From Phyllobates terribilis (Eukaryota): a stretch of 64,000 nucleotides of DNA. Both the position numbers and the translations under genes were made by a program. The DNA lies in contig NW_027362764.1 in the NCBI RefSeq assembly GCF_046119375.1, positions 188,604,001 to 188,668,000 on the forward strand, in the 5' to 3' direction. The notes under the pieces were generated by a model that did not search any database, had not been told where the DNA came from, and saw only the letters and a list, made by a program, of their open reading frames with translations. Within the stretch, counting starts at the first letter, position 1; each line of letters starts with the position of its first letter. This document shows, one piece after another, positions 22,761 to 58,029 of this stretch.

Positions 22761-22802
22761 TTAAAACGGTTGGTAGGGTGATTTTAACCAATCATCCATC
22801 TT

Positions 22803-35935: not shown

Positions 35936-36048
35936 CAGCCAATAGTTTTGGCCTAATACCACAGTTTGGCCACTCAGCTCTGCTCGGTTCCCATCCATTG
36001 TTTTTTTGTGCAAACAACTCCAGAGTTGTGAATTAGTTAACCACCAAA

Positions 36049-39000
36049 ATGAGTGGAAAAAGGCCTGCTGCTGGTGGAAAGGGGAATAGGCGTGTTGGGA
36101 AGGGGAAAAAAGGTTGTGTCCGTGGGGTAGGTGTTAAAGCAACAGTAACATCTGCAGAAGAAAGACCATCTTCCAGCCAAACTAAAATGTCTACTTCTTT
36201 TAGCGGACAATGTGATAAGATCCCTTTCTTACGGCCACGCCAATCGCTACAAATTCCAGATGAGGCACAAAAACAGCAGGTGCTTCAACGGATATCAAGT
36301 GCTCCTTTAAGTGGGCTCTCCTCCACATCAACTTCAACATCACAAATACTCCAGTCCTCAAAGGTGTCACCCCAATCGCACTTGCTTCCTCACAGCTCCC
36401 AAATCTCCAGCTGCCCGTCTGAGTATGAGGTAGAACAGATGGTTGAGTCTGCAGAGCTGTTTACTCATACTATAGCCTGGGAATCAGAGGTCGACTCCAG
36501 CGCTTCTGTGAATCCAGACGAGGAAATGATCTGCACTGATGCCCAGAATCTTTATGAGTCGGATCCAGGACCAGACGCAGAAGGTTCTGACCATAATGTA
36601 GACCCTCATTCCCAAACTGTAACTCCTGTTGGTGGAGACAATGAGGAAGACGATGATAAGACTCAAATACCTGATTGGAGCGACAACTTTAGTTTTTTGT
36701 CAGGGCAGGAACAGATTGGCTCTGAGGACGACGGGTGTGATAACGCACAGGGTGATGATGATGAGGTTGGAGATCCCACTTACTGTCAACCCACAGTCAG
36801 CCAAGAGATGAGGTCAGCAGAGGAGGTGGAGGAAGATGCTAGTGACGACGAGGTCAGGTTGCGCCTTCCTGGACAGAGACGTAGTACTGGAAGCACGTCA
36901 ACAACTGCATCCTCAAACACAACTCTGCCTCTCACCACAAGTCGTGGTGGCTCTTCAGGTCGCATGGGTGCTAAGCCTTGCATAGCCTGGGCATTTTTTC
37001 AGATCGATAAAGATGACCCAACTCGTGTTATCTGTAACATTTGTCAGCAAAAGCTAAGTAGAGGCCAAAAAATACATAGTTTGAGTACTTCATGCATGAA
37101 CCGGCACATGGACATGAAGCATAAGTTGCAGTGGGAAGCTCAGTGTGCTACAATGCGGCCTAGCCGGCCGGGCCAACCACCGTCTGCCATATCTTGTGCA
37201 TCCGCGGCCTCTTCATCCTCTGTGACTGGGGGGACAGCAGTCACACCTGTTTTGGGGCGCAGACCTGCCACCTCTTTACCCGCAACAGCCAGCGTGATTG
37301 GCAGGTCATCATTTTCTTTGGAGGTGGTAACACCAGCTGGTGTTGAGCGCTGTCCGACATCGATAGCACCACCTTTGGATCAAGGCAACCTAACATGTCC
37401 GCCTGCATCTTCCTCACAGACCGGCAGTTTGCCGGGGACACCCTTATCAACCCCGTCTAAGCACAATAGCCAGCCCTCGGTCCCTCAGATGTGGACAAGT
37501 AAAAGACCATTTCCTCCTAGCCATGAGAAAGCTGAGAGGTTGAATTTCACCATCTGCAAGCTCTTGGCTACAGAAATGCTGCCTTTCCGCCTGGTGGACA
37601 CAGAGGATTTTCGAGACCTTATGTCCGTCGCAGTGCCCCAGTACCAGATGCCCAGTCGGCACTACTTCTCAAAGAAAGGTGTGCCTGCGCTCCACCAGCA
37701 TGTCGCACACAACATCACCGCTTCTTTGAGAAACTCTGTGTGTGACAGGGTGCATTTCACCACAGACACTTGGACGAGTAGGCATGGACAGGGGCGTTAC
37801 ATGTCGCTGACTGGGCACTGGGTAACTATGGTGACAGCAGGACAAGGGGCTGCTGTCCAAGTCTTGCCATCCCCACGAGTTGTGCGTCAATCCTCTTTAT
37901 GTCAAAGTTCCTCCACTGCTTCTGCCTCCTCAACCTCCTCTCGGTCTTCCACCTGCACCCAAAGCCTGTCTGGTCATGCCACAAGCTTTCTAACTGCGCA
38001 GAAGGGATCCTGCACACCTCCTTACTATGCTGGCAGTAGGGCTCAACGTCATCAGGCGGTTTTTACATTGAATTGTCTGGGAAATGTGAGTCACACAGCT
38101 GAGGAGTTGTGGTCAGCTCTGGAGAACCAATTTCATGAATGGTTGTCTCCACTGGACCTGAAACCAGGGAAGGCCGTGTGCGACAATGCTGCAAACCTGG
38201 GTGCGGCCCTTCGCCGGGGCAATGTCACACACGTGCCTTGTATGGCTCACGTGTTGAACCTGGTTGTCCAGCAATTTTTAGCCCACTATCCCAGACTAGA
38301 TGGCCTTCTGCAGAGGGCACGGTTGCTGTGTGCTCACTTCCGCCGTTCGCATCCCGCAGCTCAGCGACTTACATCTCTACAGAAGTCGTTGGGCCTGCCA
38401 CTTCACCGGCTAAAATGCGATGTGCCTACCCGGTGGAATTCAACTCTGCACATGTTGCAGCGACTGTGGCAGCACCGACACGCCCTGGTGCAATACGTTC
38501 TGACGTATAGCCTGGGCCAACGAGATTCAGAGGTGGGGCAAATCACGCTGGAGGAGTGGTCTCAGATCAGGGACCTATGCACCCTTCTGCACAGTTTTGA
38601 AATGGCGACGAAGATGTTTAGTGCTGACGATGCCATTATCAGCATGACTATTCCGGTGATTTACATGCTGGAGCACATGTTAAACAGAATTCGGAGTCAG
38701 GTGGTGGCACAAGAGGAGGTGGAGGAAGTAGAGGAGGAGGAGTTGTATGCGGAAGGGCTAACATCTGCAAGGTCCAGACGGTCGGCAGCACCAAGGCGGC
38801 AGGCATGTGAGGGTGGGGGAGATGGTTTTACCAGGGCGCATGGTAGCAGCCAAACTAGTGAGGAAGGTGCAGGAGCCCAGGAAGAAGTGGAGGACGAACT
38901 GATGGAAGACTCATCAGATGAGGGAGACCTTGATCACATTTCTGTTGTGCGAGGTTGGGGGGAGAGGACAGAGGAAGGAAGCATGATTGTTACCTCGCCA

Positions 39001-39750
39001 CCAACACAACAGGGACTTGGTGCTCCTGGATGCGCAACACACTTGAGTGCCTTCTTGCTGCACTACCTGCAACATGACCCTCGAATTGTGAGAATTAGAA
39101 ATAATCCTGACTACTGGGTTGCCACACTGTTAGATCCCCGGTACAAAAGTAAATTTGCAGAAATTATTCCTGCCATAGAAAGGGATGCACGCATGCAGGA
39201 GTATCAGCAGAGACTGTTGCAGAATCTTACATGTGCTTTTCCACAAAATACCAGTGGTGCACGTAGTGAATCTCACAGTTCCAACTTGCCAACCGTGGGA
39301 CCGTCAAGTGTTCAGCACTCAAACCGTAACAGAACCACAGTATCTGCTGGTAACATCAATTTTGCGGAATCATTTCACCACTTTTTTAGCCCATCCTTTG
39401 CAAGGCCACAGGAGACAAGAAGTCTGACACATAGTCAACGCCTAGAGACGATGGTACAGGAGTATCTCCAAGTAAACATTGAAGCCACGACTGTGTCACT
39501 GGACCCTTGCTCTTTTTGGGCTTCCAATCTGGATAAATGGCCGGAGCTAGCCACTTACGCCTTGGAGATCTTGTCACGCCCCGCAGCCAGCGTTCTGTCT
39601 GAACGTGTGTTCAGCGCTGCTGGTGGTGTGCTGACAGATAAGCGCACGCGGCTCTCCACTGATAATGTAGACAGACTCACGTTCATAAAGATGAACAAAT
39701 CATGGATCCGAAATGACTTTTCTACCCCTGTGTCATCCTGGGGAGAGTAA
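36049..39750 (+). CDS. hAT transposase, 1233 aa, uninterrupted ORF
   Basis: BED finger (AWAFF..CNIC..HMDMKH), FTTDTWTS (D), VCDNAAN (D), CMAH, TRWNS, SERVFS (E), KRTRLS..LTFIKMN. Confidence 0.95.
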   Translation: MSGKRPAAGGKGNRRVGKGKKGCVRGVGVKATVTSAEERPSSSQTKMSTSFSGQCDKIPFLRPRQSLQIPDEAQKQQVLQRISSAPLSGLSSTSTSTSQILQSSKVSPQSHLLPHSSQISSCPSEYEVEQMVESAELFTHTIAWESEVDSSASVNPDEEMICTDAQNLYESDPGPDAEGSDHNVDPHSQTVTPVGGDNEEDDDKTQIPDWSDNFSFLSGQEQIGSEDDGCDNAQGDDDEVGDPTYCQPTVSQEMRSAEEVEEDASDDEVRLRLPGQRRSTGSTSTTASSNTTLPLTTSRGGSSGRMGAKPCIAWAFFQIDKDDPTRVICNICQQKLSRGQKIHSLSTSCMNRHMDMKHKLQWEAQCATMRPSRPGQPPSAISCASAASSSSVTGGTAVTPVLGRRPATSLPATASVIGRSSFSLEVVTPAGVERCPTSIAPPLDQGNLTCPPASSSQTGSLPGTPLSTPSKHNSQPSVPQMWTSKRPFPPSHEKAERLNFTICKLLATEMLPFRLVDTEDFRDLMSVAVPQYQMPSRHYFSKKGVPALHQHVAHNITASLRNSVCDRVHFTTDTWTSRHGQGRYMSLTGHWVTMVTAGQGAAVQVLPSPRVVRQSSLCQSSSTASASSTSSRSSTCTQSLSGHATSFLTAQKGSCTPPYYAGSRAQRHQAVFTLNCLGNVSHTAEELWSALENQFHEWLSPLDLKPGKAVCDNAANLGAALRRGNVTHVPCMAHVLNLVVQQFLAHYPRLDGLLQRARLLCAHFRRSHPAAQRLTSLQKSLGLPLHRLKCDVPTRWNSTLHMLQRLWQHRHALVQYVLTYSLGQRDSEVGQITLEEWSQIRDLCTLLHSFEMATKMFSADDAIISMTIPVIYMLEHMLNRIRSQVVAQEEVEEVEEEELYAEGLTSARSRRSAAPRRQACEGGGDGFTRAHGSSQTSEEGAGAQEEVEDELMEDSSDEGDLDHISVVRGWGERTEEGSMIVTSPPTQQGLGAPGCATHLSAFLLHYLQHDPRIVRIRNNPDYWVATLLDPRYKSKFAEIIPAIERDARMQEYQQRLLQNLTCAFPQNTSGARSESHSSNLPTVGPSSVQHSNRNRTTVSAGNINFAESFHHFFSPSFARPQETRSLTHSQRLETMVQEYLQVNIEATTVSLDPCSFWASNLDKWPELATYALEILSRPAASVLSERVFSAAGGVLTDKRTRLSTDNVDRLTFIKMNKSWIRNDFSTPVSSWGE

Positions 39751-40187
39751 AAGCTTGATGATTGGTTAAAATCACCCTACCAACCGTTTTAAGCTTTCAA
39801 ATTACTAATCATGTTTATCTGTATCTTGGCTGGAAAATAATTTGGGCTTTGTAGCAGTGTGCAGCACTGATTCTATTAGGCCATCTATAATAAGCTCCAC
39901 CAGATTTAAAATTACTAATCATGTTTATCTGTATCTTGACTGGAAAATAATTTGGGCTTTGTAGCAGTGTGCAGCACTGATCCTATTAGGCCATCTATAC
40001 TAAAGCTTCACCAGATTTAAAATTAATAATAATTTTTAGCTGCATCTAGCCCGGAAAATAATTTTGGGGCTCCGAGATGCGCAAGACACATAAGTGCCTT
40101 CTTGCTGCAGTACCTGCAGCATGACCCTCATATTGTCAGAATTCGAAGTAATCATGACTACTGGGTTGCCACACTCTTAGATCCCCC

Positions 40188-41410
40188 AAACTTTTCGATC
40201 AACCTTTTCATTTTAATAAAGACCAAAAAAATAGTCATTTTTGAAATTATAAGCATTAGCAGGTTGTTAGAAACTGAAATCAAACAGTTTTCAACTCAAA
40301 ACTTTATTCTAGGTGATGTTACATTTTCACATAGGACCCCTTGTTCGAAAGGAGCTTCTGAACTCTCTCGTCCATTGAATTTGTCAGGTTTTGGATGGTT
40401 TCTGCTTCAATTGTTTTGCATGAGGACAGAATACCCTCCCAGAGCTGTTGCTTAGATGTGAACTGCCTCCCGCCATCATAGACACTCCTTTTAATGATGC
40501 TCCAAAGGTTCTGAATGGGGTACAGGTCAGGGGAGCATGGGGGTCACACCATAAGTTTGTCCCCTTTTATGCCCATATCAGCCAGAGATGCAGATGTTTT
40601 ATGTGCAGCATGAGATGGTGCATTATCATGCAGAAAAATGATCTTGCTGTGAAATACACGGTTCTTCTTCTTGAACCATGGCAGGAAGTGCTGTTTGAGA
40701 AAATCCACATACATTATGGAGTTCATCTTTAGCGCCTTCAGGGATCCTAAAGGGGCCGACAATCTCTCTCCCCATGATTCCAGCCCAAAACATTACTCCA
40801 CCTCCTCCTTGTTGGCGCTGTAGCCGTGTTTGCGTGGGGTGTCCATCAACCAGCCATCCTCCACTCCATCCATCTGGACCATCGAGCGCTGCACGGCACT
40901 CATCCGTGAACAAAACAGTTTTGAAATCAGTCTTCATGTAATGTTTGGCCCACTGGAGCCGTTTCTGCTTGTGTGAAGTGGATAGAGGAGGTCGACAGGA
41001 TGGCGTATGCACAGCTGCAAACCTCTGAAGGACCCTGCATCTTGTTGTTCGGGGGACGTTGGAGGCACAAGCAGCTTCAAAAACTTGTCTGCTGCTATGA
41101 CAAGGCTTTTTTGCCGCTGCTCTTTCAACCTGACGTAATTGCCTGTAGGAAAGAGTCCTCAATTTGCCCTTATCAGCACGCACACGTGTGTACTGTGAAT
41201 CAGCTACATACTTCTTGATTGCCAAGACACTTCATCCTGATCATCGCACAATGTTGATTGTAGTCATGCCTTGACCTAAACACTCCACAATTTGTTGCTT
41301 CTCAGCAGCCGACACATCCTTTTTCTTTCCCATTTTGGCAGAAAATGTAGGCTGCTTAATAATGTGAGACAACCTTCTTAAGTAGTCTTGCCTTTCATTG
41401 GACACACCTG
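40188..41410 (-). mobile_element. DD37E Tc1 pseudogene in hAT copy 2, left TIR deleted
   Basis: Reverse complement of ~21143-22369. Confidence 0.85.
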
Positions 41411-42880
41411 CAGGTGCTCCGTCACTAGGATGTATAAGAGAGGGGACAGAGGACATCCCTGCCTTGTCCCATTGGTGATTGTGAAAGGTGATGAAAATGT
41501 TCTGATGCACCCCCTGGGCCTTGGGACACCCGGAGTCGGACCCTTTTTGGTGGATGCTGGTGGTTGTAGTCTTCGTGGCGGCGACCCGGTTCCGTGGCTC
41601 AGGGTGGTCAAACCAGTGGCGGAACTATTTATGTGGTTTTGATGTTTAAATGTCCGACTACGCCACCCGTGGATTGCGGTCAGAGTGAACCGCCGCTGCA
41701 GGGGAGACCGCTGAGGCTGGTGTTGTGGGTGCAGCAGAGCGTAGCATAACTCCCCACGGGAGGAGTATAGCCTCAGGGCAGTGTATGCGGAGGATGGGGG
41801 TGATGGTGCAGGGCAGCAGCAGTAACGACACGGAGTCAGTGATGCAGTCCAGGGCCTTTACTCACAGTTCTTATTATCCAGACCACGTCTGCAGGTAACG
41901 GCTGCCCACGTCGTACTGTCCTCACCAGGTGAGGGGCTCAGACAACTCCCAGATAACTTTGGAGCGCTTCACAGGACCCCCTTTGTGTGTCCTTTGTCTG
42001 GCCTTTCTTACCAACCCTTCTGTCCGGCTGCCTCGGGCCTCCTCTTGGTAAACTTGGCGCCAGTTTCCCTGACCCTATGTGGTGCCTTCCTAGCGGGTGT
42101 AGCGAGGGGCTGCGCCACATAAAATGTCACAGCCTCCGGTTTCTAGCTGAGGGTCGTTTCCTGCCTCCACTAGTTTCGGGGACCGGTCTCCCGCTTTGGC
42201 CTGACCCCTCCACGCAGGTGGATTCGGGCGTGCGGTGGCGACTCGCCCGTCTGCACCCCTGGGATCCCTTCATTCCTCGTTCCTGGAGCCTTCTACGCTC
42301 CTCTTCCTTCCTTCTCCCTCTTCCAGGCCTGGGCCTCTGTTACTAGGTCCGCCTCCGGAGCAGAGCTCATGCAGAGCCCCTGCTCCCTGCCACTTCTGCT
42401 CAGACTTCTCTGCACTGAACTAAGATGGTGCCCACCTTTTATACTCCCTTCTCAATGCACCCAGGAACTGCTTCCTCCCTGCTCCTGCACTACAGGGTTC
42501 CCCTTCCTCAGTGTTCCCTCCCCCCACTCCAGCCAGGGACAGGGACTGTCGTGCCCATCTCAGAGGCATATTGGTCGCCCTGCCCCACGGCAATGTGGTG
42601 TAATGCATGCAGGTGTCGGGTCCTGATCCACACTCCATCCTTACCTGAGAGTGAGATATCACACCTCTGGGTGAGGTGCAATACCTCTGTAGCAACCGAG
42701 CCCTCAGGGTGCTACAGTTCCATTTATCTTCAGCCTAGGTGACGTATTGTGATACAGGGCCGTGATTTTGGCTATAAAAGGGTCCCCTAGACCCCTACCC
42801 CAAGCTTTTTAAGAGAATCATATATGGCGTGCCAGGAGACTCTATGGAATGCTTTCTCAGCATCCAACGAGAGTATCTAA
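41411..42880 (-). mobile_element. L1 RT fragment with LTR-like insert (cargo of hAT copy 2)
   Basis: Reverse complement of 19095-20564; NGTRQGCPLSPLLY in ORF 41378-41611. Confidence 0.85.
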
Positions 42881-42987
42881 TTACAAATTTTTAACTGCAT
42901 CTAGCCCAGGAAATACTTTGTGCCTAGTAGCAGTGTCTGCTAGTCAGCGGATTATCCCGGCTGTTAAGCAAGCTACACCACCTGTAG

Positions 42988-43253
42988 TTTAGACACTTAA
43001 TTTTTTCAAAGGAAATGCTTCGGGACCATGGGATACTCAGTGAAGAGCATCAGGAGGCACCCCAAGGCATAGGGGCTGGGACTGGCAGTAGGATGCCTTG
43101 CGGTGGACAGCCGAGCTCGATCCTTATAAAAGCTTTTTAACTGCAGCAGCTTTAGTGGACGCTACTGGAGCTGGAATTACGCGGCTGCTGGCATGAGACT
43201 TGCCCTCCAATAGATCCTTGTAAATGGATTTAAAGTGTATTCATTCAAATTAG
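42988..43253 (-). rRNA. Diverged 18S rRNA fragment (pseudogene) inside hAT copy 2
   Basis: Reverse complement of 18721-18986 (GCTGGAATTACGCGGCTGCTGGCA..TTGCCCTCCAATAGATCC). Confidence 0.9.
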
Positions 43254-43913
43254 AGAGACAATTTAAATTAAAAAGCTTAGAGCTGCCTCCACCACAGGGG
43301 AGCTCGCTCGACCCACCAGCGGACAGGCACCAGTATTGGGAGAGGGGGGCTGGCCATCAGGGTTCACCGCGGCTCTGGCACAAACCCGGCGACACGGAGG
43401 TGGCACGGGCAGTAACGGACTGGCCGTGTCGGCTTCTCACTTTTTGGATTTTAGAAGGGCATGACATGCCTATATCTGTGTCTCCCCCTCCTTTTACTCC
43501 TCCACCTCTTTTATTTTCGCATGACTATATGTACTTGTCACTTTTCCATGTGTTAGTTATGTCTTCTGAGCAGTTTGTCAGCTTTTGGACACCTTTGAAG
43601 GTGTTTTCTATGTGTTTCTATGTGTTTTTGTTTGCCTGCCATTGGTTTTAACGGTGTTCGAAGGTGTTCGACGAACAGTTCGACGAACAGTTCGGCGAAC
43701 ACATGGGTGTTCGACGAACCGAACCGAACTCGAACACTACGGGGGTGGCTCAACACTATTCAGAAGTCAGTTTATTTAGTCATCTAGTTCTGAAATACTG
43801 AACTTTCATTGTTTCATAGCTTTCAAGCTTTTTTATTGAGTCCAACCTATAATCTTAAAAATGTTCATCCAGAGGAAGGGAAAAACTTCATGAGGCAGTA
43901 TTATGTCTCACAT

Positions 43914-45502: not shown

Positions 45503-46507
45503 GTGGATTGATAAGTAGTAGCAGTGTGATTAATAAATTGTGGTGATAGAAGGTAATGATCTAATGGAAAAATTAGGAGCCAAAGAGTTGCCTTTTAGGT
45601 AAACCATACAGAGAATATTCTTTACTAAATGATGAAAGACTACTATAAAGGAAAGCATCATCTGAATTAAAAAATGTTTTGCTCCTGATTGTGTCTAATT
45701 GGGGCTTAAAAGATAATATGTCTCCTTTATTATGTCTATTAAATAAATACAAAAAACAGAGGCATATGATTTGAACCAAAATAAAATACTATTATGTTTG
45801 CACATCTCTACTAGTGTTGACTCCGACAATTAACCACATTTGGCCTACTATTGTGCCTGCTATGCCTTGTAAGAGTGAAATCGCATAGATCCTTCCTGGA
45901 AGAATTTATCAAAAATTCTCCTTATGGGATTGCATACTCTGCATTCCTTCAGTGATGGCTCATAACTGGTGTGACACCTGTAACTTTATCATCTCCCACG
46001 TTCATGTATTGCACAGCAAAGGGTGTCAGATCATTGGTTAGTAAAGAGAGGAGAGAACAAGGCGCAATGGGTGACTCAGTATTGCAATTTGTAGAGGGGT
46101 GTGGGGATGGCTACTAACCTTATGAAGTTGTGCACCTCTGCACAACCCCAGTGTAAAGCTCCACAAGCTCCGCTCTGTTGGTGGCTGTCATCTATTTCCA
46201 GCGGCGTTCACAGATCCTGATCTTTCGGTGGTGGATCACGTGGTCAGGTTAGTAGCATGTAATGCCGAGATAGACGCCCAGCTTCACCAACACCCCCGGC
46301 AGCATTCCGGAGGGGTTTAGGCAGCGCAGCTTGGAAAACCAGGGTGGTAATTTTAATTAAATTGCTCCCACAGGTGAAAAAACAATAGATTAAAGGCAGC
46401 TCTACCGTACCCCAACAGAGGGAAAAGGACAATCAGTGAATATGAATAGCGGTACCAGAGCGCCAATAACAGGGCAAAAATATTAAAAGGACTGATTTAT
46501 TAATACA

Positions 46508-46551
46508 CACACAACGCGTTTCGGTGGACACAGCCACCTTCATCAGGTGTG
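46508..46551 (-). ncRNA. Minimal type I hammerhead ribozyme
   Basis: CACAC-CTGATGA-A-GGTGG(ctgtgt)CCACC-GAAA-CGCG-TT-GTGTG on the minus strand. Confidence 0.9.
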
Positions 46552-46933
46552 ACAAGCAGCAAACAATTGATCCTTATATACATTTGACTAGGTATACAAT
46601 TACTTAAAAGGGGCGGGGCCAGATACAGAGTAATACCTCTATATTAACCCCTTGAGTTCATATATGCTCAATAGAGTAAAAAGGATTGTTATAAAATAAT
46701 GCCTCATGAAGCATATAGGGTTCTTATAAAAAGGATTCGCTGTAAAAAAAACAAAAAACTTGTGAATCCTATAATCTTAATACTTCATAGGATATATTGT
46801 CATCTACCGCCCTATATTTTAGATTATATAAAAAAATAATAATAATAATAATTTTTACATACAACATAAAACAATGCATAAATATAAAGTTATAAAATTA
46901 CAATCAGTTTCTATCATTGTAATTAGGAAAAGT

Positions 46934-47065
46934 NNNNNNNNNNNNNNNNNNNNNNNNNNNNNNNNNNNNNNNNNNNNNNNNNNNNNNNNNNNNNNNNNNN
47001 NNNNNNNNNNNNNNNNNNNNNNNNNNNNNNNNNNNNNNNNNNNNNNNNNNNNNNNNNNNNNNNNA
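46934..47065. other. Assembly gap (N run) in the low-complexity PLE 3' UTR
   Basis: N characters at the position matching the T-rich tract near 55140-55290. Edges approximate. Confidence 0.95.
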
Positions 47066-47215
47066 TTTTTCTTTAAATTTTTTCTCCTTTCTCTCTCTCC
47101 TCCCTCCTCCCCTCCCTCTCTCCTTTCCCCTCTTCCCTCTTTCTCTCTCTCCTCCCCCTCCTCCTCCATATAAAAGATATATATAATAAATTTGCTAAAA
47201 TATGAAAACAATTAT

Positions 47216-49723
47216 TTAAAAAGTTGTCTTCTCTATATTAAGGTTCAAACCTTCAGGAGACAAGGTTCCCATTTTGAAAATCCAATAATTTTCACGTGTA
47301 ATGAGACGATTTAGTCTATCAGGGTGTGTATCAACTATATGATCAATGATAGTTAGTTTTAGGTTATTAGGATTTTTTTGATGTTCTTTTAAGAAATGAT
47401 TAGAAACACTATGTAGGGGAAAGCCGTTTCTAATGTTTTGGCGATGTTTATTTAATCTTGAGTGCATTTCCTGGATAGTGCGGCCAATGTATTGCAGGCC
47501 GCAGGTGCACTGGAGCAGATAGATCACATATGAGGACTGACATGTAAGTCTAAAGCGAATGGGATAGATCTCTCCAGTGACCGCAGAGACGAATGTTTTG
47601 GCTCCGTTATCAATGGATTGACAGCATAAGCATTTAGGGACATTACATTTATAACATCCATTATTGCTAATAGGAGCTGAATGGTTCGGTCTTCTACCAA
47701 TTGTTGTATTGCTAGGGGCTATATAGTTTCCTAGATTTTTACTCCTCCGATATATGACATGAGGAAATTCCGGTAAATGACCAGTTAATATTGGATCATT
47801 ACTTAAAATGAACCAGTATTTTTTTAATAAACTGGATAACACTTGCGTAGGTTTACCATAGGTAGTAATCAGATTTAAACTGAAATCGTTGTTTGGCTCT
47901 TGGCTGGTATTCTTGGATTTGTTGATACACAGGTTCTGTGATAGGGATCTAGTTTTGGAGAAAGCATCCTCTAATAATTTCCGGGGGTATCCCTTAGCTC
48001 TAAAACGTTTTTGTAAAACCTTAGATTCCAGAAAAAAATCCGAATCATGTGTACAATTTTTTCTGACACGCCAATATTGACCATATGGAATATTTCTAAT
48101 CCAGCTGGGTAGATGGCCACTGTCAAATTCAAGATAGCTATTTACATCCACTTCCTTAAAGTGGGTAGATGTGGATATTTTACCCGAATTGTCTATATTT
48201 ATCTGAAGGTCAAGATATTGAATATTACTCTCAGATATGGTAGAGGTAAAGGAAAGACCCCAGTCATTAGAGTTTAATTCATCAATAAATTTGGCAGCCT
48301 CCACAGTATTTCCCCTCCATATGATAAACAGATCATCTATAAAGCGGCGGTACATAACGATGGGTTTATCGGCGCCGAGGGATTGCGCGATGTGGATAGA
48401 CTTGAATGCCCCCATATATAGATTTGCATAACTGGGGGCAAACCTCGTCCCCATCGCGCAGCCCCTCAGCTGCCGATACATCACCCCCTCAAAAGAAAAT
48501 ACATTGTTCTCAAGAATGAAAGTTATACCCCTCAATAAAAAGTTTTTTTGAGGATCTTGTAAGTTAGGGTCCTCATCTAGGAATATTTTAATTGCCTGTA
48601 AACCCAATACATGTGTGATATTGGAATAAAGAGAGCTTATATTGAGTGTAATAAGAAGACAGCCTGGAAGAGGGGGTAATTCTCTCAATATTGTAATTAA
48701 ATGTGTAGAATCCTTTAAATGAGAATCTAGGGATAAAACATACTTCTGTAAAAAAAGATCAATATAGTGGGATAAGTTGGATGTGATAGAATTAATACCA
48801 GAAATAATAGGACGTCCAGGGGGATTAAATTTATCTTTATGAATTTTGAGTAAAAAATAAAAATAAGGGACTTTGAATTTTTTAATGTCTAAAAAGGATT
48901 TTTCTTTTTTATTGAGGAAGCCAGCTGTAGAGGCCCCTGCTACAAGTCCTTTGTACTCCAAAAAAATGGTTACAGATGGGTCTGCTTCGAATTTCACGTA
49001 GTAGTTTGAGTCGTCTAAGATTCTGAGGCCCTCCTTGATGTACCAGCCCCTGTTCATTATCACAGTCCCCCCTCCCTTATCTGCTCTCTTTATAATTATT
49101 TCTTTATTATCCTGAAGGGTTTTTAATGCACATTTCTCCTGGTAGCTCAAGTTGTTCACTTTTTTTGAAATTGGGGGGAATGTCCTAAGGTCCCTCAAAA
49201 TTAACTGTTGGAAAGTTTCAAGGTGTGAACCTTTGTGATGTAATGGATAGAAATTATTTTTCCCCTTCACATTTACATGAGTGAAAGGGTCCAGTGATGG
49301 GGGGCCTGATATATTAGATTCTTGAATGGAGGAGGATACTGTTGAGCATGAACTAATAGGATGTGATTTTCTCTTGTCTTCCAATAGACAATGCCTTTTT
49401 AGTGTCAATTTCCTTATAAATTCATTTAAATCACAGAACAAAGTGAAATTATTAAATGGGACAGCTGGACAGAAAGATAATCCTCGACCTAACAGGGATC
49501 GTTCAGCTTCAGATAGCACATAGCTAGAAATATTAAAAATACCCCCACAACCGATAAGGGTTTCTATCTGCAGGGAATTTGTATTCTGGTTCATTGGCAA
49601 GATTTCATTTTCTTTATATTTGGATTGTGTCTCAATTTCGGCATTTGGACTATTTTTGTTATTGAGGCCTCGGGTTTTTCCACTCCCTCTACATCCCCTA
49701 AATTTCTTTTTCATTTTGGACAA
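47216..49723 (-). CDS. PLE RT + Cys-rich linker + GIY-YIG endonuclease, 835 aa open frame (motif-A Asp changed to Asn)
   Basis: KRADKGG, GRPIISG, TLNISSLY, GCAMGTRFAPSYANLYM, RFIDD, CYKCNVPKCLCC, VIYLLQCTCGLQYIGRT, RENYWI. The listed start is TTG. Confidence 0.93.
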   Translation of the reverse strand: MSKMKKKFRGCRGSGKTRGLNNKNSPNAEIETQSKYKENEILPMNQNTNSLQIETLIGCGGIFNISSYVLSEAERSLLGRGLSFCPAVPFNNFTLFCDLNEFIRKLTLKRHCLLEDKRKSHPISSCSTVSSSIQESNISGPPSLDPFTHVNVKGKNNFYPLHHKGSHLETFQQLILRDLRTFPPISKKVNNLSYQEKCALKTLQDNKEIIIKRADKGGGTVIMNRGWYIKEGLRILDDSNYYVKFEADPSVTIFLEYKGLVAGASTAGFLNKKEKSFLDIKKFKVPYFYFLLKIHKDKFNPPGRPIISGINSITSNLSHYIDLFLQKYVLSLDSHLKDSTHLITILRELPPLPGCLLITLNISSLYSNITHVLGLQAIKIFLDEDPNLQDPQKNFLLRGITFILENNVFSFEGVMYRQLRGCAMGTRFAPSYANLYMGAFKSIHIAQSLGADKPIVMYRRFIDDLFIIWRGNTVEAAKFIDELNSNDWGLSFTSTISESNIQYLDLQINIDNSGKISTSTHFKEVDVNSYLEFDSGHLPSWIRNIPYGQYWRVRKNCTHDSDFFLESKVLQKRFRAKGYPRKLLEDAFSKTRSLSQNLCINKSKNTSQEPNNDFSLNLITTYGKPTQVLSSLLKKYWFILSNDPILTGHLPEFPHVIYRRSKNLGNYIAPSNTTIGRRPNHSAPISNNGCYKCNVPKCLCCQSIDNGAKTFVSAVTGEIYPIRFRLTCQSSYVIYLLQCTCGLQYIGRTIQEMHSRLNKHRQNIRNGFPLHSVSNHFLKEHQKNPNNLKLTIIDHIVDTHPDRLNRLITRENYWIFKMGTLSPEGLNLNIEKTTF

Positions 49724-50539
49724 TGTCCGGGGACCACGTGAAAAAAATGTGTAATTTTCGTTTTATTAGTTTGAGATGCAACTGCATTCTGTGTTTGAGG
49801 ATTTATCAAGATACTATTCTCATTCAAAATCGGAGATAATTCCAAGGATGTCATTCTGTTTATAGGGGGTTTTATGTGGTTTATACCACTTGTTTTATCA
49901 GAGGGTCTCCCTTGATTAAAAATATTCAGTGTATCCGCTAACGGGATCTGTCCAGATAACTCCCCAGCAATAGGAATCTGTATTGCACTTGAAAGCTCTG
50001 AGATATTAGATCCACTATGGGATATCTCCTGTGTGTTAATATGTAATGTGAAGTTCAGTTCATCAATATCTGCTACTTGTGTGGAAATAGTAGGCGGATT
50101 AGCAATAAATTCTACATCTGCTACATCTCTTTTTTTTCTCTTTCCTTTCTTCGTCTACTTTTCCTAATTACAATGATAGAAACTGATTGTAATTTTATAA
50201 CTTTATATTTATGCATTGTTTTATGTTGTATGTAAAAATTATTATTATTATTTATTTTTTTATATAATCTAAAATATAGGGTGGTAGATGACAATATATC
50301 CTATGAAGTATTAAGATTATAGGATTCACAAGTTTTTTGTTTTTTTTACAGCGAATCCTTTTTATAAGAACCCTATATGCTTCATGAGGCATTATTTTAT
50401 AACAATCCTTTTTACTCTATTGAGCATATATGAACTCAAGGGGTTAATATAGAGGTATTACTCTGTATCTGGCCCCGCCCCTTTTAAGTAATTGTATACC
50501 TAGTCAAATGTATATAAGGATCAATTGTTTGCTGCTTGT

Positions 50540-50583
50540 CACACCTGATGAAGGTGGCTGTGTCCACCGAAACGCGTTGTGTG
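50540..50583 (+). ncRNA. Minimal type I hammerhead ribozyme (5' pLTR)
   Basis: CACAC CTGATGA A GGTGG ctgtgt CCACC GAAA CGCG TT GTGTG; predicted cleavage after GUU at 50578. Confidence 0.9.
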
Positions 50584-51210
50584 TGTATTAATAAATCAGT
50601 CCTTTTAATATTTTTGCCCTGTTATTGGCGCTCTGGTACCGCTATTCATATTCACTGATTGTCCTTTTCCCCCTGTTGGGGTGCGGTAGAGCTGCCTTTA
50701 ATCTATTGTTTTTTCACCTGTGGGAGCAATTTAATTAAAATTACTACCCAGGTTTTCCAAGCTGCGCTGCCTTAACCCCTCCGGAACGCTGCCGGGGGTG
50801 TTGGTGAAGCTGGGCGTCTATCTCGGCATTACATGCTACTAACCTGACCACGTGATATACCACCAAGAGATCAGGATCTGTGAACGCCGCTGGAAATAGA
50901 TGACAGCCACCAACAGAGCGGAGCTTGTGGAGCTTTACACTGAGGTTGTGCAGAGGTGCACAACTTCATAAGGTTAGTAGCCATCCCCACACCCCTCTAC
51001 AAATTGCATTACTGAGTCACCCATTGCGCCTTGTTCTCTCCTCTCTTTACATATTGAATCTGCTATTGCTGGGGGCTTAGCCTCAAGACCAGGAGCTGCA
51101 AATTGGGCGACCCAGATTGTTCTACACATCGAGAGACGGAAAAACCTTGCAGAATCATCAACAGATAAGAACTGTGTTTAAGACTTTAAAATCTAAATTG
51201 CTGGATCATT

Positions 51211-52626
51211 ATGGACTTTTATGTGACCAATAGAGAGAAATTTAGATTATCTCTGATCAATACAGCCCTTAGTAAAGACTTTAAAGATGGCGACAGATGC
51301 ATATATAATAATCCAACTATGCTGAATGATATAGATCAAAAAAGGTTACGTGGACTGTTTTTGAACTTAGAAAATAATAGCAAAATAGAAATAACTAATC
51401 ACATAGACACGATGTTTTTAGAACATTACATTAAGGATAACATAATACCCAAGGGATTGAGAATGAATCTCAATTCATCCTTTCCTCAGGATATTGTTTT
51501 TACTGAAAGATGGGACAGGTGTATTTCTGATTGCTCAACAACACTGATCAGATTGTTGATTGATAAAAGGAATACTCTGGCTATGTATGCTTTAGAAACA
51601 ATAGCTAAAATTAAAGGGGATTTGGAGTTCTTTTCTTCATCTACGGAATATTTTGCCACAGATAATGAGTTAAAACTAAGACTGGCTAAGTTTGAAAATG
51701 ATTTAATAAATAAAAAAGCAAAAAAATATGAAAGAGATATAAAAGACTCTAAAAAAGAAAAAATCCAATCACCACTTCAAATTTCACCTGTTCCCATCAT
51801 CTCTATGCAGAGAACAACTAGGGATAATCCATCATCCCCTATTCTAAGCAATGATACTGATAACCATACAAAACAAGTGAATAGTTTTCAAAAACAGTTT
51901 TTTATGAATAAAAAACAACAAGCAATATATGAGACTCATAAAAAGAAGTTATCCATCAACAATAATTACAAGAAAAATACTGCATTTAATTCTAATTTGG
52001 AAAAAAATAATGACCTTATAATAGAGGGAATGTGTATGGAAATTACTCCTCCCTCCATACTGATTACTGATCCACCTATTTTATCCACACAAGTAGCAGA
52101 TGTAGAATTTATTGCTAATCCACCCACTATTTCCACACAAGTAGCAGATATTGATGAACTGAACTTCACATTACATATTAACACACAGGAGATATCCCAT
52201 AGTGGATCTAATATCTCAGAGCTTTCTAGTGCAATACAGATTCCTATTGCTGGGGAGTTATCTGGACAGATCCTGTTAGCGGATACACTGAATATTTTTA
52301 ATCAAGGGAGACCCTCTGATAAAACAAGTGGTATAAACCACCTAAAACCCCCTATAAACAGAATGACATCCTTGGAATTATCTCCGATTTTGAATGAGAA
52401 TAGTATCTTGATAAATCCTCAAACACAGAATGCAGTTGCATCTCAAACTAATAAAACGAAAATTACATATTTTTTTCACGTGGTCCCCGGACATTGTCCA
52501 AAACGAAAAAGAAATTTAGGGGATGTAGAGGGAGTGGAAAAACCCGAGGCCTCAACAACAAAAATAGTCCAAATGCCGAAATTGAGACACAATCCAAATA
52601 TAAAGAAAATGAAATCTTGCCAATGA
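51211..52626 (+). CDS. PLE upstream ORF1, 471 aa, function unknown
   Basis: ATG-initiated and open. FLEHYIKDNIIPKGLR motif, coiled-coil-like DNELKLRLAKFENDLINKKAKKYERD, low-complexity C half. Its 3' part is also present in the minus arm (49591-50124). Confidence 0.8.
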   Translation: MDFYVTNREKFRLSLINTALSKDFKDGDRCIYNNPTMLNDIDQKRLRGLFLNLENNSKIEITNHIDTMFLEHYIKDNIIPKGLRMNLNSSFPQDIVFTERWDRCISDCSTTLIRLLIDKRNTLAMYALETIAKIKGDLEFFSSSTEYFATDNELKLRLAKFENDLINKKAKKYERDIKDSKKEKIQSPLQISPVPIISMQRTTRDNPSSPILSNDTDNHTKQVNSFQKQFFMNKKQQAIYETHKKKLSINNNYKKNTAFNSNLEKNNDLIIEGMCMEITPPSILITDPPILSTQVADVEFIANPPTISTQVADIDELNFTLHINTQEISHSGSNISELSSAIQIPIAGELSGQILLADTLNIFNQGRPSDKTSGINHLKPPINRMTSLELSPILNENSILINPQTQNAVASQTNKTKITYFFHVVPGHCPKRKRNLGDVEGVEKPEASTTKIVQMPKLRHNPNIKKMKSCQ

Positions 52627-55000
52627 ACCAGAATACAAATTCCCTGCAGATAGAAACCCTTATCGGTTGTGGGGGTATTTTTAATATTTCTAGCTATGTG
52701 CTATCTGAAGCTGAACGATCCCTGTTAGGTCGAGGATTATCTTTCTGTCCAGCTGTCCCATTTAATAATTTCACTTTGTTCTGTGATTTAAATGAATTTA
52801 TAAGGAAATTGACACTAAAAAGGCATTTTCTATTGGAAGACAAGAGAAAATCACATCCTATTAGTTCATGCTCAACAGTATCCTCCTCCATTCAAGAATC
52901 TAATATACCAGGCCCCCCATTACTGGACCCTTTCACTCATGTAAATGTGAAGGGGAAAAATAATTTCTATCCATTACATCACAAAGGTTCACACCTTGAA
53001 ACTTTCCAACAATTAATTTTGAGGGACCTTAGGACATTCCCCCCAATTTCAAAAAAAGTGAACAACTTGAGCTACCAGGAGAAATGTGCATTAAAAACCC
53101 TTCAGGATAATAAAGAAATAATTATAAAGAGAGCAGATAAGGGAGGGGGGACTGTGATAATGAACAGGGGCTGGTACATCAAGGAGGGCGTCAGAATCTT
53201 AGACGACTCAAACTACTACGTGAAATTAGAAGCAGACCCATCTGTAACCATTTTTTTGGAGTACAAAGGACTTGTAGCAGGGGCCTCTACAGCTGGCTTC
53301 CTCAATAAAAAAGAAAAATCCTTTTTAGACATTAAAAAATTCAAAGTCCCTTATTTTTATTTTTTACCCAAAATTCATAAAGATAAATTTAATCCCCCTG
53401 GACGTCCTATTATTTCTGGTATTAATTCTATCACATCCAACTTATCCCACTATATTGATCTTTTTTTACAGAAGTACGTTTTATCCCTAGATTCTCATTT
53501 CAAGGATTCTACACATTTAATTACAATATTGAGAGAATTACCCCCTCTTCCAGGCTGTCTTTTTATTACACTCGATATAAGCTCTCTTTTTCCAATATCA
53601 CACATGTATTGGGTTTACAGGCAATTAAAATATTCCTAGATGAGGACCCTAACTTACAAGATCCTCAAAAAAACTTTTTATTGAGGGGTATAACTTTCAT
53701 TCTTGAGAACAATGTATTTTCTTTTGAGGGGGTGATGTATCGGCAGCTGAGGGGCTGCGCGATGGGGACGAGGTTTGCCCCCAGTTATGCAAATCTATAT
53801 ATGGGGGCATTCAAGTCTATCCACATCGCGCAATCCCTCGGCACCGATAAACCCATCGTTATGTACCGCCGCTTTATAGATGATCTGTTTATCATATGGA
53901 GGGGAAATACTGTGGAGGCTGCCAAATTTATTGATGAATTAAACTCTAACGACTGGGGTCTTTCCTTTACCTCTACCATATCTGAGAGTAATATTCAATA
54001 TCTTGACCTTCAGATAAATATAGACAATTCGGGTAAAATATCCACATCTACCCACTTTAAGGAAGTGGATGTAAATAGCTATCTTGAATTTGACAGTGGC
54101 CATCTACCCAGCTGGATTAGAAATATTCCATATGGTCAATATTGGCGTGTCAGAAAAAATTGTACACATGATTCGGATTTTTTTCTGGAATCTAAGGTTT
54201 TACAAAAACGTTTTAGAGCTAAGGGATACCCCCGGAAATTATTAGAGGATGCTTTCTCCAAAACTAGATCCCTATCACAGAACCTGTGTATCAACAAATC
54301 CAAGAATACCAGCCAAGAGCCAAACAACGATTTCAGTTTAAATCTGATTACTACTTATGGTAAACCTACGCAAGTGTTATCCAGTTTATTAAAAAAATAC
54401 TGGTTCATTTTAAGTAATGATCCAATATTAACTGGTCATTTACCGGAATTTCCTCATGTCATATATCGGAGGAGTAAAAATCTAGGAAACTATATAGCCC
54501 CTAGCAATACAACAATTGGTAGAAGACCAAACCATTCAGCTCCTATTAGCAATAATGGATGTTATAAATGTAATGTCCCTAAATGCTTATGCTGTCAATC
54601 CATTGATAACGGAGCCAAAACATTCGTCTCTGCGGTCACTGGAGAGATCTATCCCATTCGCTTTAGACTTACATGTCAGTCCTCATATGTGATCTATCTG
54701 CTCCAGTGCACCTGCGGCCTGCAATACATTGGCCGCACTATCCAGGAAATGCACTCAAGATTAAATAAACATCGCCAAAACATTAGAAACGGCTTTCCCC
54801 TACATAGTGTTTCTAATCATTTCTTAAAAGAACATCAAAAAAATCCTAATAACCTAAAACTAACTATCATTGATCATATAGTTGATACACACCCTGATAG
54901 ACTAAATCGTCTCATTACACGTGAAAATTATTGGATTTTCAAAATGGGAACCTTGTCTCCTGAAGGTTTGAACCTTAATATAGAGAAGACAACTTTTTAA
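52455..55000 (+). pseudogene. PLE RT + GIY-YIG ORF2 with a 1-nt deletion near 53590
   Basis: ORFs 52494-53639 and 53609-55000 match the minus-arm ORF; CTCTTTTTCC here versus CTCTTTATTCC in the other arm. Confidence 0.93.
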
Positions 55001-55665
55001 ATAATTGTTTTCATATTTTAGCAAATTTATTATATATATCTTTTATATGGAGGAGAAGGGGGGAGAAGAGAGAGAAAGAGGGAAGAGGGGAAAGGAGAGA
55101 GGGAGGGGAGGAGGGAGGAGAGAGAGAAAGGAGAAAAAATTTAAAGAAAAATTTTTTATTTTTTTTATTTTTTTTTTTTTTTGGGGGAGGGATTTTTTTT
55201 TGGAATTTTTTTTTTTTGATTTTTTTTTTTAAATTTTTTGGAATTTTTTTTTTTTCTCTTTTTTTTCTCTTTCCTTTCTTCGTCTACTTTTCCTAATTAC
55301 AATGATAGAAACTGATTGTAATTTTATAACTTTATATTTATGCATTGTTTTATGTTGTATGTAAAAATTATTATTATTATTATTTTTTTATATAATCTAA
55401 AATATAGGGTGGTAGATGACAATATATCCTATGAAGTATTAAGATTATAGGATTCACAAGTTTTTTGTTTTTTACAGCGAATCCTTTTTATAAGAACCCT
55501 ATATGCTTCATTAGGCATTATTTTATAACAATCCTTTTTACTCTATTGAGCATATATGAACTCAAGGGGTTAATATAGAGGTATTACTCTGTATCTGGCC
55601 CCGCCCCTTTTAAGTAATTGTATACCTAGTCAAATGTATATAAGGATCATTTGTTTGCTGCTTGT

Positions 55666-55709
55666 CACACCTGATGAAGGTGGCTGTGTCCACCGAAACG
55701 CGTTGTGTG
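55666..55709 (+). ncRNA. Minimal type I hammerhead ribozyme (3' pLTR)
   Basis: Identical to 50540-50583. Confidence 0.9.
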
Positions 55710-58029
55710 TGTATTAATAAATCAGTCCTTTTAATATTTTTGCCCTGTTATTGGCGCTCTGGTACCGCTATTCATATTCACAGATCATTGGTTAGGACAG
55801 CCGTGAAGGAGTTATTGGCAAATAGGAAGTGTGTGCTCAGAGTTGTTCCTGGAAGTTCCTGTGTGTGTTGCGATTATGTTTGCCAATCAGTAAGAACCAA
55901 AGTCCAGAAATCCAAAAAGTTATAGTGTTTAACTGGATCCTTGAGAAGAGGCATTACAACCTTTTGGGCATGGTGCAGAGCATCGGCAGCAGAAGTCACA
56001 AATAACCATTGTTGCCGCTATCACAGAGTTGGTGTAAATTAATATTCATATTCATGACAGCCCTCTCCCAGCACAAGAATCCTCACAGTGAGCAGTGCGC
56101 GTGATGTGAGTATTCACAAGTCTGCAGTCACATAGAGTGACTGGAGACTTGTAAAGACGAGACAACCTCTGTATGAAGGTAATAATAATCTAGAAAAATC
56201 AATTATGCAACAACGGGCTCCTAGGCCTGGCTTCTTTACCAGTTTATTATTCCATGCTCCTGACTGTATTATTTGTCACTTGGCCTGCTTGAAGGTAAGC
56301 ACTTATGACAATTTGGCTACTTGATATTGATTATGTGGATCTGGTGACTAGGACAGCCTTCTAATAAAAAGCTTTGTTCAAAGTGGACACCCCAAGATAT
56401 ATTTCTACAGATCACTGAAAACATAAACTCGCAGAGCGTTTACTGCCATATTGTAACCATATGACTTCATCAATTTCTTTTTCTCTGCTATGAACTCTTG
56501 AACTGTTTTATAAACTCTTTCAAGTTCACTTTTCTTTGGTCTGAAAATAGTTTGTGGTGTATTTATCAAACTTTTCTGGACTTTTTCCTAATTTTTAAAA
56601 TGGGCCTGTTTTTGGATATGGTTCCATTTACTCTTAACAGAACAAGTAAACAGACTATTAATAAAGCCAATGCATATCTAGTCACATAGCAAACATCATA
56701 GTAAATATGTATTTTCAGTCTTTATTAAGTTCACCAAACATGTTACTCATAGCTTTCCCAGCAGCTGATTGATTTAAAGAGGAAATAATTTGGAATATTT
56801 CCAATTGGTTAATTTTTCAGGCCTGGACATCTGGCAAAGATGGAAGTAGAATCTATTTATTTCCGACAATACTGTCTAGCTCAGCATGATAACCAGCTTA
56901 CGACATAATAAAGTGAGCGATCTAGCCTTAAACTAGTCTAGCCAAAAGATAGTGGAGTTACCCATGTCAACCAAGCATATTACTGCTTTCACTATTTGTC
57001 GGGATTTTTCTAATCATCATGATTCATTAATAGAATGCCAAATCTTCAGAATAATCAGACATCGATTGGGCACTCATTGGTTTTGACAATATGGTATCCC
57101 TTGGCTTCTAAATACCTTTTACATTGCCTATTCCTTGGTATAAAAATGTATGGGCATTTTGAAATTCAAACTATCAACTCCTTGTTTTCCCCAAAGTAAA
57201 GGATGGGAAATACCATCTTAATGGGAATCTGTCAGCAGGATTTCCCCCCAAACTATTTATACGCACATGTAGCTCTTTCAAAGACAAGTTCATCAATTAC
57301 TTTAGATGGCCAGTCCATTCCTCTGTTACTGAGAAATCAGCTTTTGAGTTTATATGCAGACAAAGCTGTAGATCTCAAACACTCTGACACTCCAGCTCTA
57401 TTCCCAGCCCAGTGCCACCTTCTCATGCTTGACTGACAACCTGTATATTGTTTGACTTTAGGCAATGGAGCCATCAGTCAAGCACGAGGAGACTGCACTC
57501 TATGCTGTGACGCTGAGTCACTTGTCATGGACAAGCCAAGGAGTCCGAGGTCAAAATCCAGAAGGGTACGTCAAAAACAAAGGGATAAGACAAAAGAATA
57601 GTAAGAGGCAAAATCCGGGGTCAGGTAACTAAGGTCAGAGTGCATCAAAGGCAAAAGGGGTAATACAAATGAGTAGTCAAAAGAAAAATGCAAGGTCCGA
57701 CAACAAAGATCAGAAAATCAGAACGCAGAGCAAACACACCATAGAGCAAGGCTCCAACGGGCAATGTTCTGATCATTGCCAGCCAGCTAAATAGCCAGGT
57801 AATCACCCTGAATGGATGACACCTGGAAGAAACTCCACAGGACTGGCCAGATTGCATGACTGCGTTGTCATTCACAATACTGACAGCCCAGCACACCCAA
57901 TTAAAATAAAGTAGCACTCTGTAACGCTAAGTATGCAAACATGAAATATATGAAATTTGCATTGCATTACTGCTCAAGAAAATATAAATAATTGAGAAAT
58001 CTTAGCGCATAAATTGGCCAATTCATATA

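Follow-up and report, generated by a model that had tools for sequence, protein, structure and literature searches.

A near-complete unit of an amphibian Neptune-type PLE and a shortened, flipped copy of it lie back to back within one target-site duplication (TSD), a reading of identity and layout together that we hold to be practically certain. Both nicked strands of the target probably primed reverse transcription in a single event. Features are listed by position in the window (the whole 64-kb stretch of DNA analysed). pLTR, pseudo-LTR; RT, reverse transcriptase; EN, endonuclease.

46027-46041, plus strand, left TSD copy; 13-bp core at 46028-46040, last G common to the 3' end of the left arm.
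46041-50124, minus strand, left arm, inverted 5'-truncated PLE copy of 4.08 kb; starts within ORF1 at the equivalent of 52093 and ends at the equivalent of 51050.
46041-46435, minus strand, left arm, outer 395 nt; lacking at the right arm's 3' end, 12 substitutions (3.0%) relative to 50656-51049.
46508-46551, minus strand, left copy of the minimal hammerhead-type motif; all three copies are identical.
46934-47064, no strand, assembly gap of 131 N; counterpart in the right arm is a 133-nt T-rich tract, 55153-55285.
47216-49762, minus strand, left arm, open frame for RT - zinc-finger linker - GIY-YIG; 848 codons stop to stop.
50115-50135, no strand, head-to-head joint; 4-nt templated stutter and 3-nt microhomology, no TSD copy, no palindrome.
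50126-51050, plus strand, 5' pLTR of the right arm, made up of a 3'UTR part, a hammerhead motif, and a 5'UTR part.
50540-50583, plus strand, minimal hammerhead-type motif, middle copy; predicted cut after 50578.
51214-52626, plus strand, ORF1, 470 aa counted from its first ATG; the stop codon and the following ATG overlap (ATGA, 52623-52626).
52623-55000, plus strand, right arm, frame for RT - zinc-finger linker - GIY-YIG; a 1-nt frameshift interrupts it near 53590.
55255-55781, plus strand, 3' pLTR of the right arm; ends at the equivalent of 50655, 77 nt beyond the expected hammerhead cut; hammerhead motif at 55666-55709.
55781-55795, plus strand, right TSD copy; first C common to the 3' end of the right arm.

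Exactly two copies of AGATCATTGGTTA are found in the window, at 46028 and 55782. A flanking C and G are common to both copies, giving a TSD of 13-15 bp, and each of these extra bases doubles as the final base of the adjoining arm; a 13-mer match by chance at two fixed ends has a probability of about 4e-8. The single TSD around the block that the preliminary description had claimed is thereby confirmed, and the separate TSD for each arm that it had named as refuting its reading was looked for and rejected, none being found. The right TSD copy is spanned without a difference by contigs from two samples (X1 record 7, X5 record 13), in which right end, TSD and flank are unbroken. This contig comparison skipped 55133-55397 as repeat and left out the left flank, which places the inner and left joints outside its reach; no empty allele was seen among the contig matches listed.

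The arm alignments bear out that both 3' ends point outward and that the 5' ends meet head-to-head at about 50125. Arm ends first placed at the equivalents of about 51048 (left) and 50665 (right) are corrected to 51050 and 50655, and the inverted repeat put at about 4 kb is indeed inverted, with a main stem measured at 3.7 kb and a spacer of 1.97 kb. The right arm, on the plus strand (50126-55781, 5.66 kb), is a pLTR-ORF1-RT/GIY-YIG-pLTR unit in which 50126-50659 recurs at 55255-55785 (98.9%). The left arm matches it from 50124 to 47065 against 52093 to 55152 (99.1%), and from 46933 to 46041 against 50157 to 51050 (98.4%). The sequence around either 3' end does not fold into a significant structure (z -1.7 and +0.9). 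The RT frame of the left arm carries P247L and, in motif A, D316N, at residues invariant in 19/19 aligned relatives; neither arm would now encode a working enzyme.

At the head-to-head joint the left arm ends in CTGCTAC, followed by ATCT re-copied from 9 nt upstream and then by the right arm, with TCT shared; the loosely described microhomology or stutter is thus a 4-nt stutter with 3-nt microhomology. No copy of the target motif is present at the inner joint, and no palindrome, the longest perfect stem around 50085-50165 being 3 bp.

The PLE-type RT has 118 relatives at E<=1e-3 (best 1e-208), the best of them amphibian PLE proteins with 40-48% identity. Pfam RVT_1 is matched by 16 of the 20 aligned members and the conserved RT columns are present in the window's protein; that protein itself is without RVT_1 at E 0.01, and the four PLE frames of the window match no Pfam family. 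The C-terminal GIY-YIG endonuclease VIYLLQCTCGLQYIGRT, with its CCHH residues, has the invariant residues Y690, C694, C696, Y700, G702, R711, H715, and E766; Pfam GIY-YIG is matched by 6 of the 20 aligned members, the window's own protein not among them. Between RT and EN lies a zinc-finger-like CX4CxxC linker (C648, C653, C656; invariant in 20/20 aligned sequences), which fits the Neptune pattern CX2-5CxxC. Such a linker is also found in Nematis (PMC8557442); PLE clades reported in vertebrates are Neptune and Poseidon. The element is assigned to the Neptune type provisionally, on RT, linker, and GIY-YIG features. ORF1 residues 41-188 resemble the N-terminal part of a PLE protein from an amphibian (34%, E 1e-24). 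No sequence relative of the aligned PLE family proteins was found in PDB.

A hammerhead-type motif with CTGATGA and GAAA cores and stems I and II is present in three identical copies, one per pLTR. The cores follow the hammerhead consensus; the ribozyme is a candidate one and its cut site putative. In the middle copy stems I and II fold with z -1.2, not significant alone, and Rfam gave no hammerhead match at E<=5 (8 matches, all far below gathering score).

An unusual character of the layout is not supported. It has been published as the 'typical Penelope structure' (PMC3846280, PMC8557442), and the present locus agrees with it: an inverted 5'-truncated copy adjoins the upstream pLTR head-to-head within one TSD. 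The layout is ordinary for the class; the unusual point is the long flipped arm. Pen2a_Av of Adineta vaga (PMC3846280) and the elements of Craig et al. 2021, Fig. 2 (PMC8557442) likewise combine pLTR-ORF-pLTR with an inverted 5'-truncated copy, and one TSD surrounds the whole (8, 9, and 10 bp in the rotifer cases; here 13-15 bp). Their 3' end is longer on one side only, and here too one end is the longer. The inverted arm is 181 bp in Pen2a_Av, whereas here it is 4.08 kb and includes the whole RT-EN frame. The ends are offset by 395 nt here and by 30-40 in published inverted PLEs, in which the tail is optional; unlike those, the present locus has no palindrome at the joint and has a separate upstream ORF1. 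A C-terminal GIY-YIG and the CX2-5CxxC linker are common to Neptune/Nematis-type PLEs and this element, but canonical PLEs are described as single-ORF, in contrast to the two frames with ATGA overlap here.

Two-ended priming is favoured because there is a single TSD, no inner copy of the target, and 3.7 kb of the element present twice; the priming of both nicked strands in one event, as first suggested, remains the best reading. In the proposed course, the GIY-YIG nuclease would nick the two strands at an offset of 13-15 nt, and reverse transcription would be primed from each 3' end. Top-strand synthesis would begin at the outer site of the pLTR (equivalent of 51050) and stop after 4.08 kb inside ORF1; bottom-strand synthesis would begin 395 nt further upstream (equivalent of 50655) and continue for 5.66 kb, across a whole unit and on into the 3'UTR that precedes it. 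Microhomology-mediated end joining, leaving a short templated stutter, would then link the two cDNA ends. The templates would come from one sub-lineage, and each arm would afterwards decay separately. The 3' ends of both arms fall within the pLTR, downstream of the hammerhead motif. Each has AC as its last letters and agrees with the target in one base; at the right end 4/6 bases match (CTGATT vs CAGATC), as expected for priming sites. Counting against two-ended priming is the 395-nt end offset, ten times the published 30-40-nt tail.

Two known systems resemble this course. The PLE protein of Anolis carolinensis (Poseidon, PAc), a predicted dimer, cleaves and extends both strands in vitro (PMC11167929) and, as is proposed here, begins reverse transcription inside the pLTR, at sites downstream of the hammerhead, without homology between start and target; unlike here, it belongs to a different clade and its start sites lie 30-40 nt apart. 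The main text of PMC11167929 draws no link between both-strand extension and inverted insertions. In L1 twin priming and two-transcript insertions (PMC11702581) both strands are primed, as is proposed here; as observed here, the 5' part is inverted and inner microhomology is found, with an intact TSD of 12-18 bp (here 13-15 bp); opposite-orientation L1 insertions from two RNAs arise through joining of two extended ends. Classical twin priming on one monomer RNA does not give the present layout: in L1 the parts usually overlap by 1-10 bp (PMC11702581), whereas here 3.7 kb is present in both arms and both ends lie in the pLTR.

Within two-ended priming, templates in the form of two RNA molecules are plausible, at somewhat less than an even chance. 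A rather doubtful variant, akin to twin priming in L1, has a single tandem read-through RNA, 11.2 kb or longer, as its template: the first primer would start at the outer pLTR site belonging to the last unit and the second would anneal a unit further upstream, with loss of 1.44 kb (equivalents 50656-52092) in between. Set end to end, the right arm, a gap of 1437 nt, and the left arm are collinear with such a tandem array; the family shows the tandem joint 55777 to 50658 in abundance (depth 1500 in X1, 875 in X6), a multi-copy mRNA has been proposed (PMC11167929), and the second priming site matches the target at 4/6 bases. A source with two near-full tandem units would be required, however, the 11-kb transcript would have to survive three hammerhead sites, and inner breakpoints of L1 lie mostly within 1-10 bp, not 1.4 kb (PMC11702581). 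Separate RNAs and separate units of one concatemer both fit the sequence of this locus.

In the published account of head-to-head PLE repeats, favoured by Arkhipova et al. for inverted PLE structures, a single end is primed, and the strand then primes itself or switches to an antisense template, either the nascent cDNA or an antisense RNA; the left arm would on this account carry on the strand of the right arm. It is unlikely here: although the joint stutter is also compatible with a template switch and both arms are of one sub-lineage, the joint has no stem above 3 bp, the inverted arm begins 2 kb from the joint, and the left arm runs 395 nt past the right 3' end with an extra part 3% off the only other local copy. 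An assembly artefact, a collapsed or mis-oriented repeat beside the scaffold gap, is very unlikely. Such loci are known to trouble assemblies (PMC8557442), the family is high-copy, an N gap lies inside the left arm, arm divergence is uneven, and the right end is the one backed by contigs; but an artefact would yield neither a 13-15-bp duplication at both outer ends nor arm-specific mutations, nor a 131-N gap fitting the missing 133 nt, and the contigs of two samples run unbroken through the right end. Hardly probable at all are two independent insertions at or beside one site, or a later rearrangement. The abundance of the family (ORF1 contig depths 874-1603 vs flank 7.5, X1) and the ability of the Anolis element to cut its own pLTR (PMC11167929) would suit such insertions, against which stand the lack of an arm-specific TSD and of the target motif at the joint, and the letters rare in the family that both arms carry; two large hAT-type copies in the window do show that pattern, each with its own 8-bp TSD.

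Differences between the arms had been taken as a sign of two templates. Among the listed letters of the overlap that differ from the family majority, 21 of 29 are common to both arms, with 10/17 silent in the RT frame. Shared letters from post-insertion mutation plus conversion were rejected on this silent bias (binomial p 0.001-0.013), as was, on the 21 common letters, the use of arm differences as proof of two unrelated source elements. Of the changes between the arms in RT, 5 are silent and 10 alter an amino acid; both arms carry inactivating changes. The arms would thus be of one sub-lineage, most of their mutual differences being consistent with decay after insertion and the coding ones looking like neutral decay, so that most lose their value as evidence for two templates. 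Along the ORFs the differences are uneven, the inner half holding 20/24 of them (KS p 0.008; scan permutation p 0.02), beyond plain decay; conversion, mosaic templates, or partial assembly collapse could be the source.

The two-template claim draws support from the outer 395-nt segment of the left arm. Relative to the middle pLTR 12/394 sites differ there, and elsewhere 26/3559 (3% vs 0.7%; Fisher p 2e-4), the segment being singled out post hoc and GC-richer (49%, 12 CpG), with 0/12 sites polarised; it was therefore probably not copied from the right arm. It is the sole arm difference that points to a separate template segment. The clustered substitutions of the preliminary description are real (4 in 11 nt, 50857-50867) but lie between the left pLTR and the right 5' pLTR, not the 3' end.

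To account for inverted PLE insertions, priming of both strands, self-priming on antisense RNA, and resolution by a nuclease have been raised. Tentatively, the inverted layout of PLEs may generally be made by a dimeric RNP priming both nicked strands on two separate RNAs, here with start sites 395 nt apart in a long pLTR; such a general origin was not found stated in the literature searched, mostly papers available without subscription. If true, it would replace the antisense self-priming model, and the locus would be a large natural record linking both-strand extension in vitro to a genomic structure. A single locus changes little, because the layout is ordinary for the class. With arms of this length, the variable sites suffice for tracing each to its template, and a tally across the high-copy amphibian family could separate the models of inverted PLE formation.

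In contigs of the family the tandem pLTR joint is common. The exact pLTR pattern was found in 0 metagenome contigs; the protein search gave 78 short PLE contigs, 21 with direct and 2 with inverted repeats, and none with both flanks, which makes the set useless for a layout tally. In sample X9 (guessed to be RNA) the ORFs are covered and 4 unique-flank bins are not, a pattern equally expected of low-coverage DNA and therefore silent on expression. siRNA from Penelope inverted repeats has been reported in Drosophila (PMC3681739). Transcription outward from the centre would not give siRNA here, because both arms yield the same sense; a host transcript crossing the 3.7-kb inverted repeat could give siRNA against the family.

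The block is a genuine insertion of a Penelope-like element (PLE) with an ordinary layout. Its parts, arms delimited by self-comparison of the window, are:

46041-50124, minus strand: left arm, an inverted 5'-truncated PLE copy
50126-55781, plus strand: right arm, a near-complete PLE unit
51214-52626, plus strand: ORF1, 470 aa, upstream of the reverse transcriptase (RT)

The left arm matches 52093-55152 at 99.1% identity and, beyond a gap, 50157-51050 at 98.4%; the gap is 131 N long, where the right arm has 133 T-rich bases. A 925-nt pseudo-LTR (pLTR) opens the right arm, and its first 530 nt are repeated at that arm's 3' end. Each outer end of the block carries a copy of the 13-mer AGATCATTGGTTA, preceded by C and followed by G, and the 64-kb window has no third one (chance of a 13-mer match at two fixed ends, ~4e-8); no copy lies at the inner joint (~50125). 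There the left arm terminates in CTGCTAC, followed by ATCT re-copied from 9 nt upstream, with TCT common to this stutter and the right arm; no palindrome lies near the joint, the longest perfect stem being 3 bp. The single target-site duplication (TSD), outward arms and head-to-head joint of the preliminary description are borne out by self-comparison and motif count; the outward 3' ends also stand, with their equivalents in right-arm coordinates corrected to 51050 (left) and 50655 (right), and the inverted repeat is present with a stem of 3.7 kb, not ~4 kb, and a spacer of 1.97 kb. Small interfering RNAs match long inverted repeats according to the available text of a Penelope review (PMC3681739); here dsRNA would plausibly arise only with a read-through host transcript.

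Scoring of 8000 candidates gave 118 relatives of the long frame at E<=1e-3, the best at 40-48% identity and the named ones mostly amphibian proteins. Alignment with 19 relatives displays RT motifs, a CX4CxxC linker and a GIY-YIG domain; Pfam RVT_1 matches 16 and Pfam GIY-YIG 6 of the 20 aligned members, the window's own protein having neither match. Such a linker marks Neptune or Nematis (PMC8557442, available text), of which Neptune is the clade reported in vertebrates (bioRxiv 2026.07.22.740005, likewise); the element is accordingly classed as a putative amphibian Neptune-type PLE, by linker and vertebrate host range rather than by tree. The stop of ORF1 and the start codon of RT overlap (ATGA; RT frame, 52623-55000), which could permit translational re-initiation. 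The N-terminal part of ORF1 matches an amphibian PLE protein (E 1e-24), and one relative (P0009, 1197 aa) carries the ORF1 N-terminal domain and RT within one predicted protein; canonical PLEs are described as single-ORF, whereas ORF1 is separate here. A minimal hammerhead-type motif, identical in every pLTR, was recognised by the hammerhead core consensus; an Rfam search found no hammerhead.

The arms were compared with the family majority at the best-supported 40 of 154 rows, not a random sample; three rows close behind a frameshift and one in the flank were excluded and two pLTR rows handled apart, leaving 34. Within these best 40, 29 of the 34 fall in the arm overlap, where both arms share the off-majority letter at 21 and the right arm alone departs at 8; both pLTR rows have a letter common to the left and middle copies (the middle pLTR being the right arm's 5' pLTR). 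In the RT frame 10 of 17 arm-shared letters from these rows are silent (binomial p 0.001-0.013), a bias typical of a lineage under selection, and the arms differ from each other by 5 silent and 10 amino-acid changes (p 0.2-0.5), which fits neutral change. Two residues invariant across 19 of 19 relatives are substituted in the left arm, whose ORF1 remnant also contains a stop; a frameshift interrupts the right arm. Shared letters, neutral-like differences and separate lesions thus assign both arms to one sub-lineage, with mostly separate decay since (~0.4% each), and the insertion is predicted to be inactive now in both.

Divergence is uneven: the left arm's outer 395 nt and the middle pLTR disagree at 12 of 394 sites, compared with 26 of 3559 in the rest (Fisher p 2e-4; region picked out post hoc, GC-richer, its 12 sites without polarity), which suggests derivation of this segment from a different unit. 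The substitution excess (50656-51050 vs 46041-46435) is threefold to fourfold. The switch from near-identical to divergent lies between 50282 and 50672; this interval includes the position where the hammerhead would be expected to cut (50578), so the template may have changed from one cleaved RNA to another. Arm differences had been read as a sign of two templates; mostly separate decay weakens this, and the outer 395 nt remain suggestive. Of 24 ORF differences between the arms (52093-55055 vs 47162-50124), 20 lie in the inner half (KS test, p 0.008; permutation of a scan statistic, p 0.02), with arm-to-arm gene conversion, mosaic templates or partial assembly collapse as candidates.

Each outer end is a PLE 3' end that lies downstream of the hammerhead motif and terminates in AC, one base matching the target; at the right outer end 4 of 6 bases match. 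The simplest reading, which we consider probable, is that both nicked target strands would prime reverse transcription and the two cDNAs would be joined by microhomology with templated stutter. The earlier proposal allowed a separate RNA or a separate concatemer unit for each strand. Within the two-strand reading, two RNA molecules fit the data and are a serious possibility, short of even chances; a single tandem RNA, at least 11.2 kb long and losing 1.44 kb between the primers, fits too and is rather unlikely. L1-style twin priming of a monomer RNA is ruled out by the 3.7-kb overlap between the arms, L1 inner breakpoints being 1-10 bp in the available text of a preprint (PMC11702581), which also reports opposite-orientation L1 insertions from two transcripts. 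Self-priming on an antisense template, proposed for inverted Penelope structures by Arkhipova et al. 2013 (PMC3846280), is improbable: the expected palindrome is absent and the extra, divergent 395 nt are hard to supply. An assembly artefact is very improbable. Independent insertions are likewise very improbable: the arms lack TSDs of their own, unlike the window's two hAT-type copies, where that pattern is clear:

18213-28261: composite hAT-type copy, transposase frame split
34300-43762: composite hAT-type copy, zf-BED/hAT transposase frame 36037-39750 open (1237 codons)

Each has its own 8-bp TSD (ATCTTGAG; CTTCTGAA), hence independent insertions carrying cargo. The copies, 9.5-10 kb each, are ~98% alike, in opposite orientation and 6 kb apart, possibly a local hop; the composite element has imperfect terminal inverted repeats and contains one fragment each of RT and Tc1.

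In the available text of Arkhipova et al. 2013 (PMC3846280), the typical Penelope structure is pLTR-ORF-pLTR with an adjoining inverted pLTR within one TSD, most commonly head-to-head, the same overall layout as here and one likewise given as typical in Craig et al. 2021 (PMC8557442). Frangieh et al. 2024 (PMC11167929), as far as available, show that a PLE protein cuts and extends both strands and starts internally, and predict that it dimerises. No statement of two-RNA priming for PLEs was found in the available passages of the literature; supplements, figures and two reviews (one of 2005 by Evgen'ev with Arkhipova, one of 2006 by Arkhipova) may cover long inverted arms or two-strand priming. 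The 4-kb inverted arm, 395-nt end offset and divergent outer segment are of mild interest, and make the family suited to testing how inverted PLE insertions form.

Of 24 sequencing runs listed, 20 contain part of the stretch; four (X1, X5, X6, X9; contigs only; one possibly the window's own source) were compared on 50657-57600, with the left flank outside and 55133-55397 skipped as repeat. From the element 3' end, one contig each of X1 (55756-56128) and X5 (55753-56124) crosses the TSD and enters the flank with zero differences and flank-like depth, which suggests that the right end is real (element letters 26 and 29, below the 31-letter bridging threshold); neither shows an empty allele there. 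High family abundance shows in X1: contig depth is 874-1603 over ORF1 vs 7.5 in the flank (depth, not copy number), and the tandem joint of 3'UTR with 5'UTR is frequent (depth 1500 in X1). Summed X1 depth reaches 37,000-78,000 in pLTR bins (50657-51120, 55529-55760) vs 1,100-3,000 in ORF1 bins, which suggests a genome rich in hammerhead-bearing copies that are short or non-autonomous. Further repeats are:

56105-56153 and ~57218-57400: short pieces of interspersed repeats with very high copy number, right flank (run contigs)
1-~2400, 6391-~12550 and 35159-35998: arrays with tandem units of 52 bp, ~150/300 bp and 108 bp
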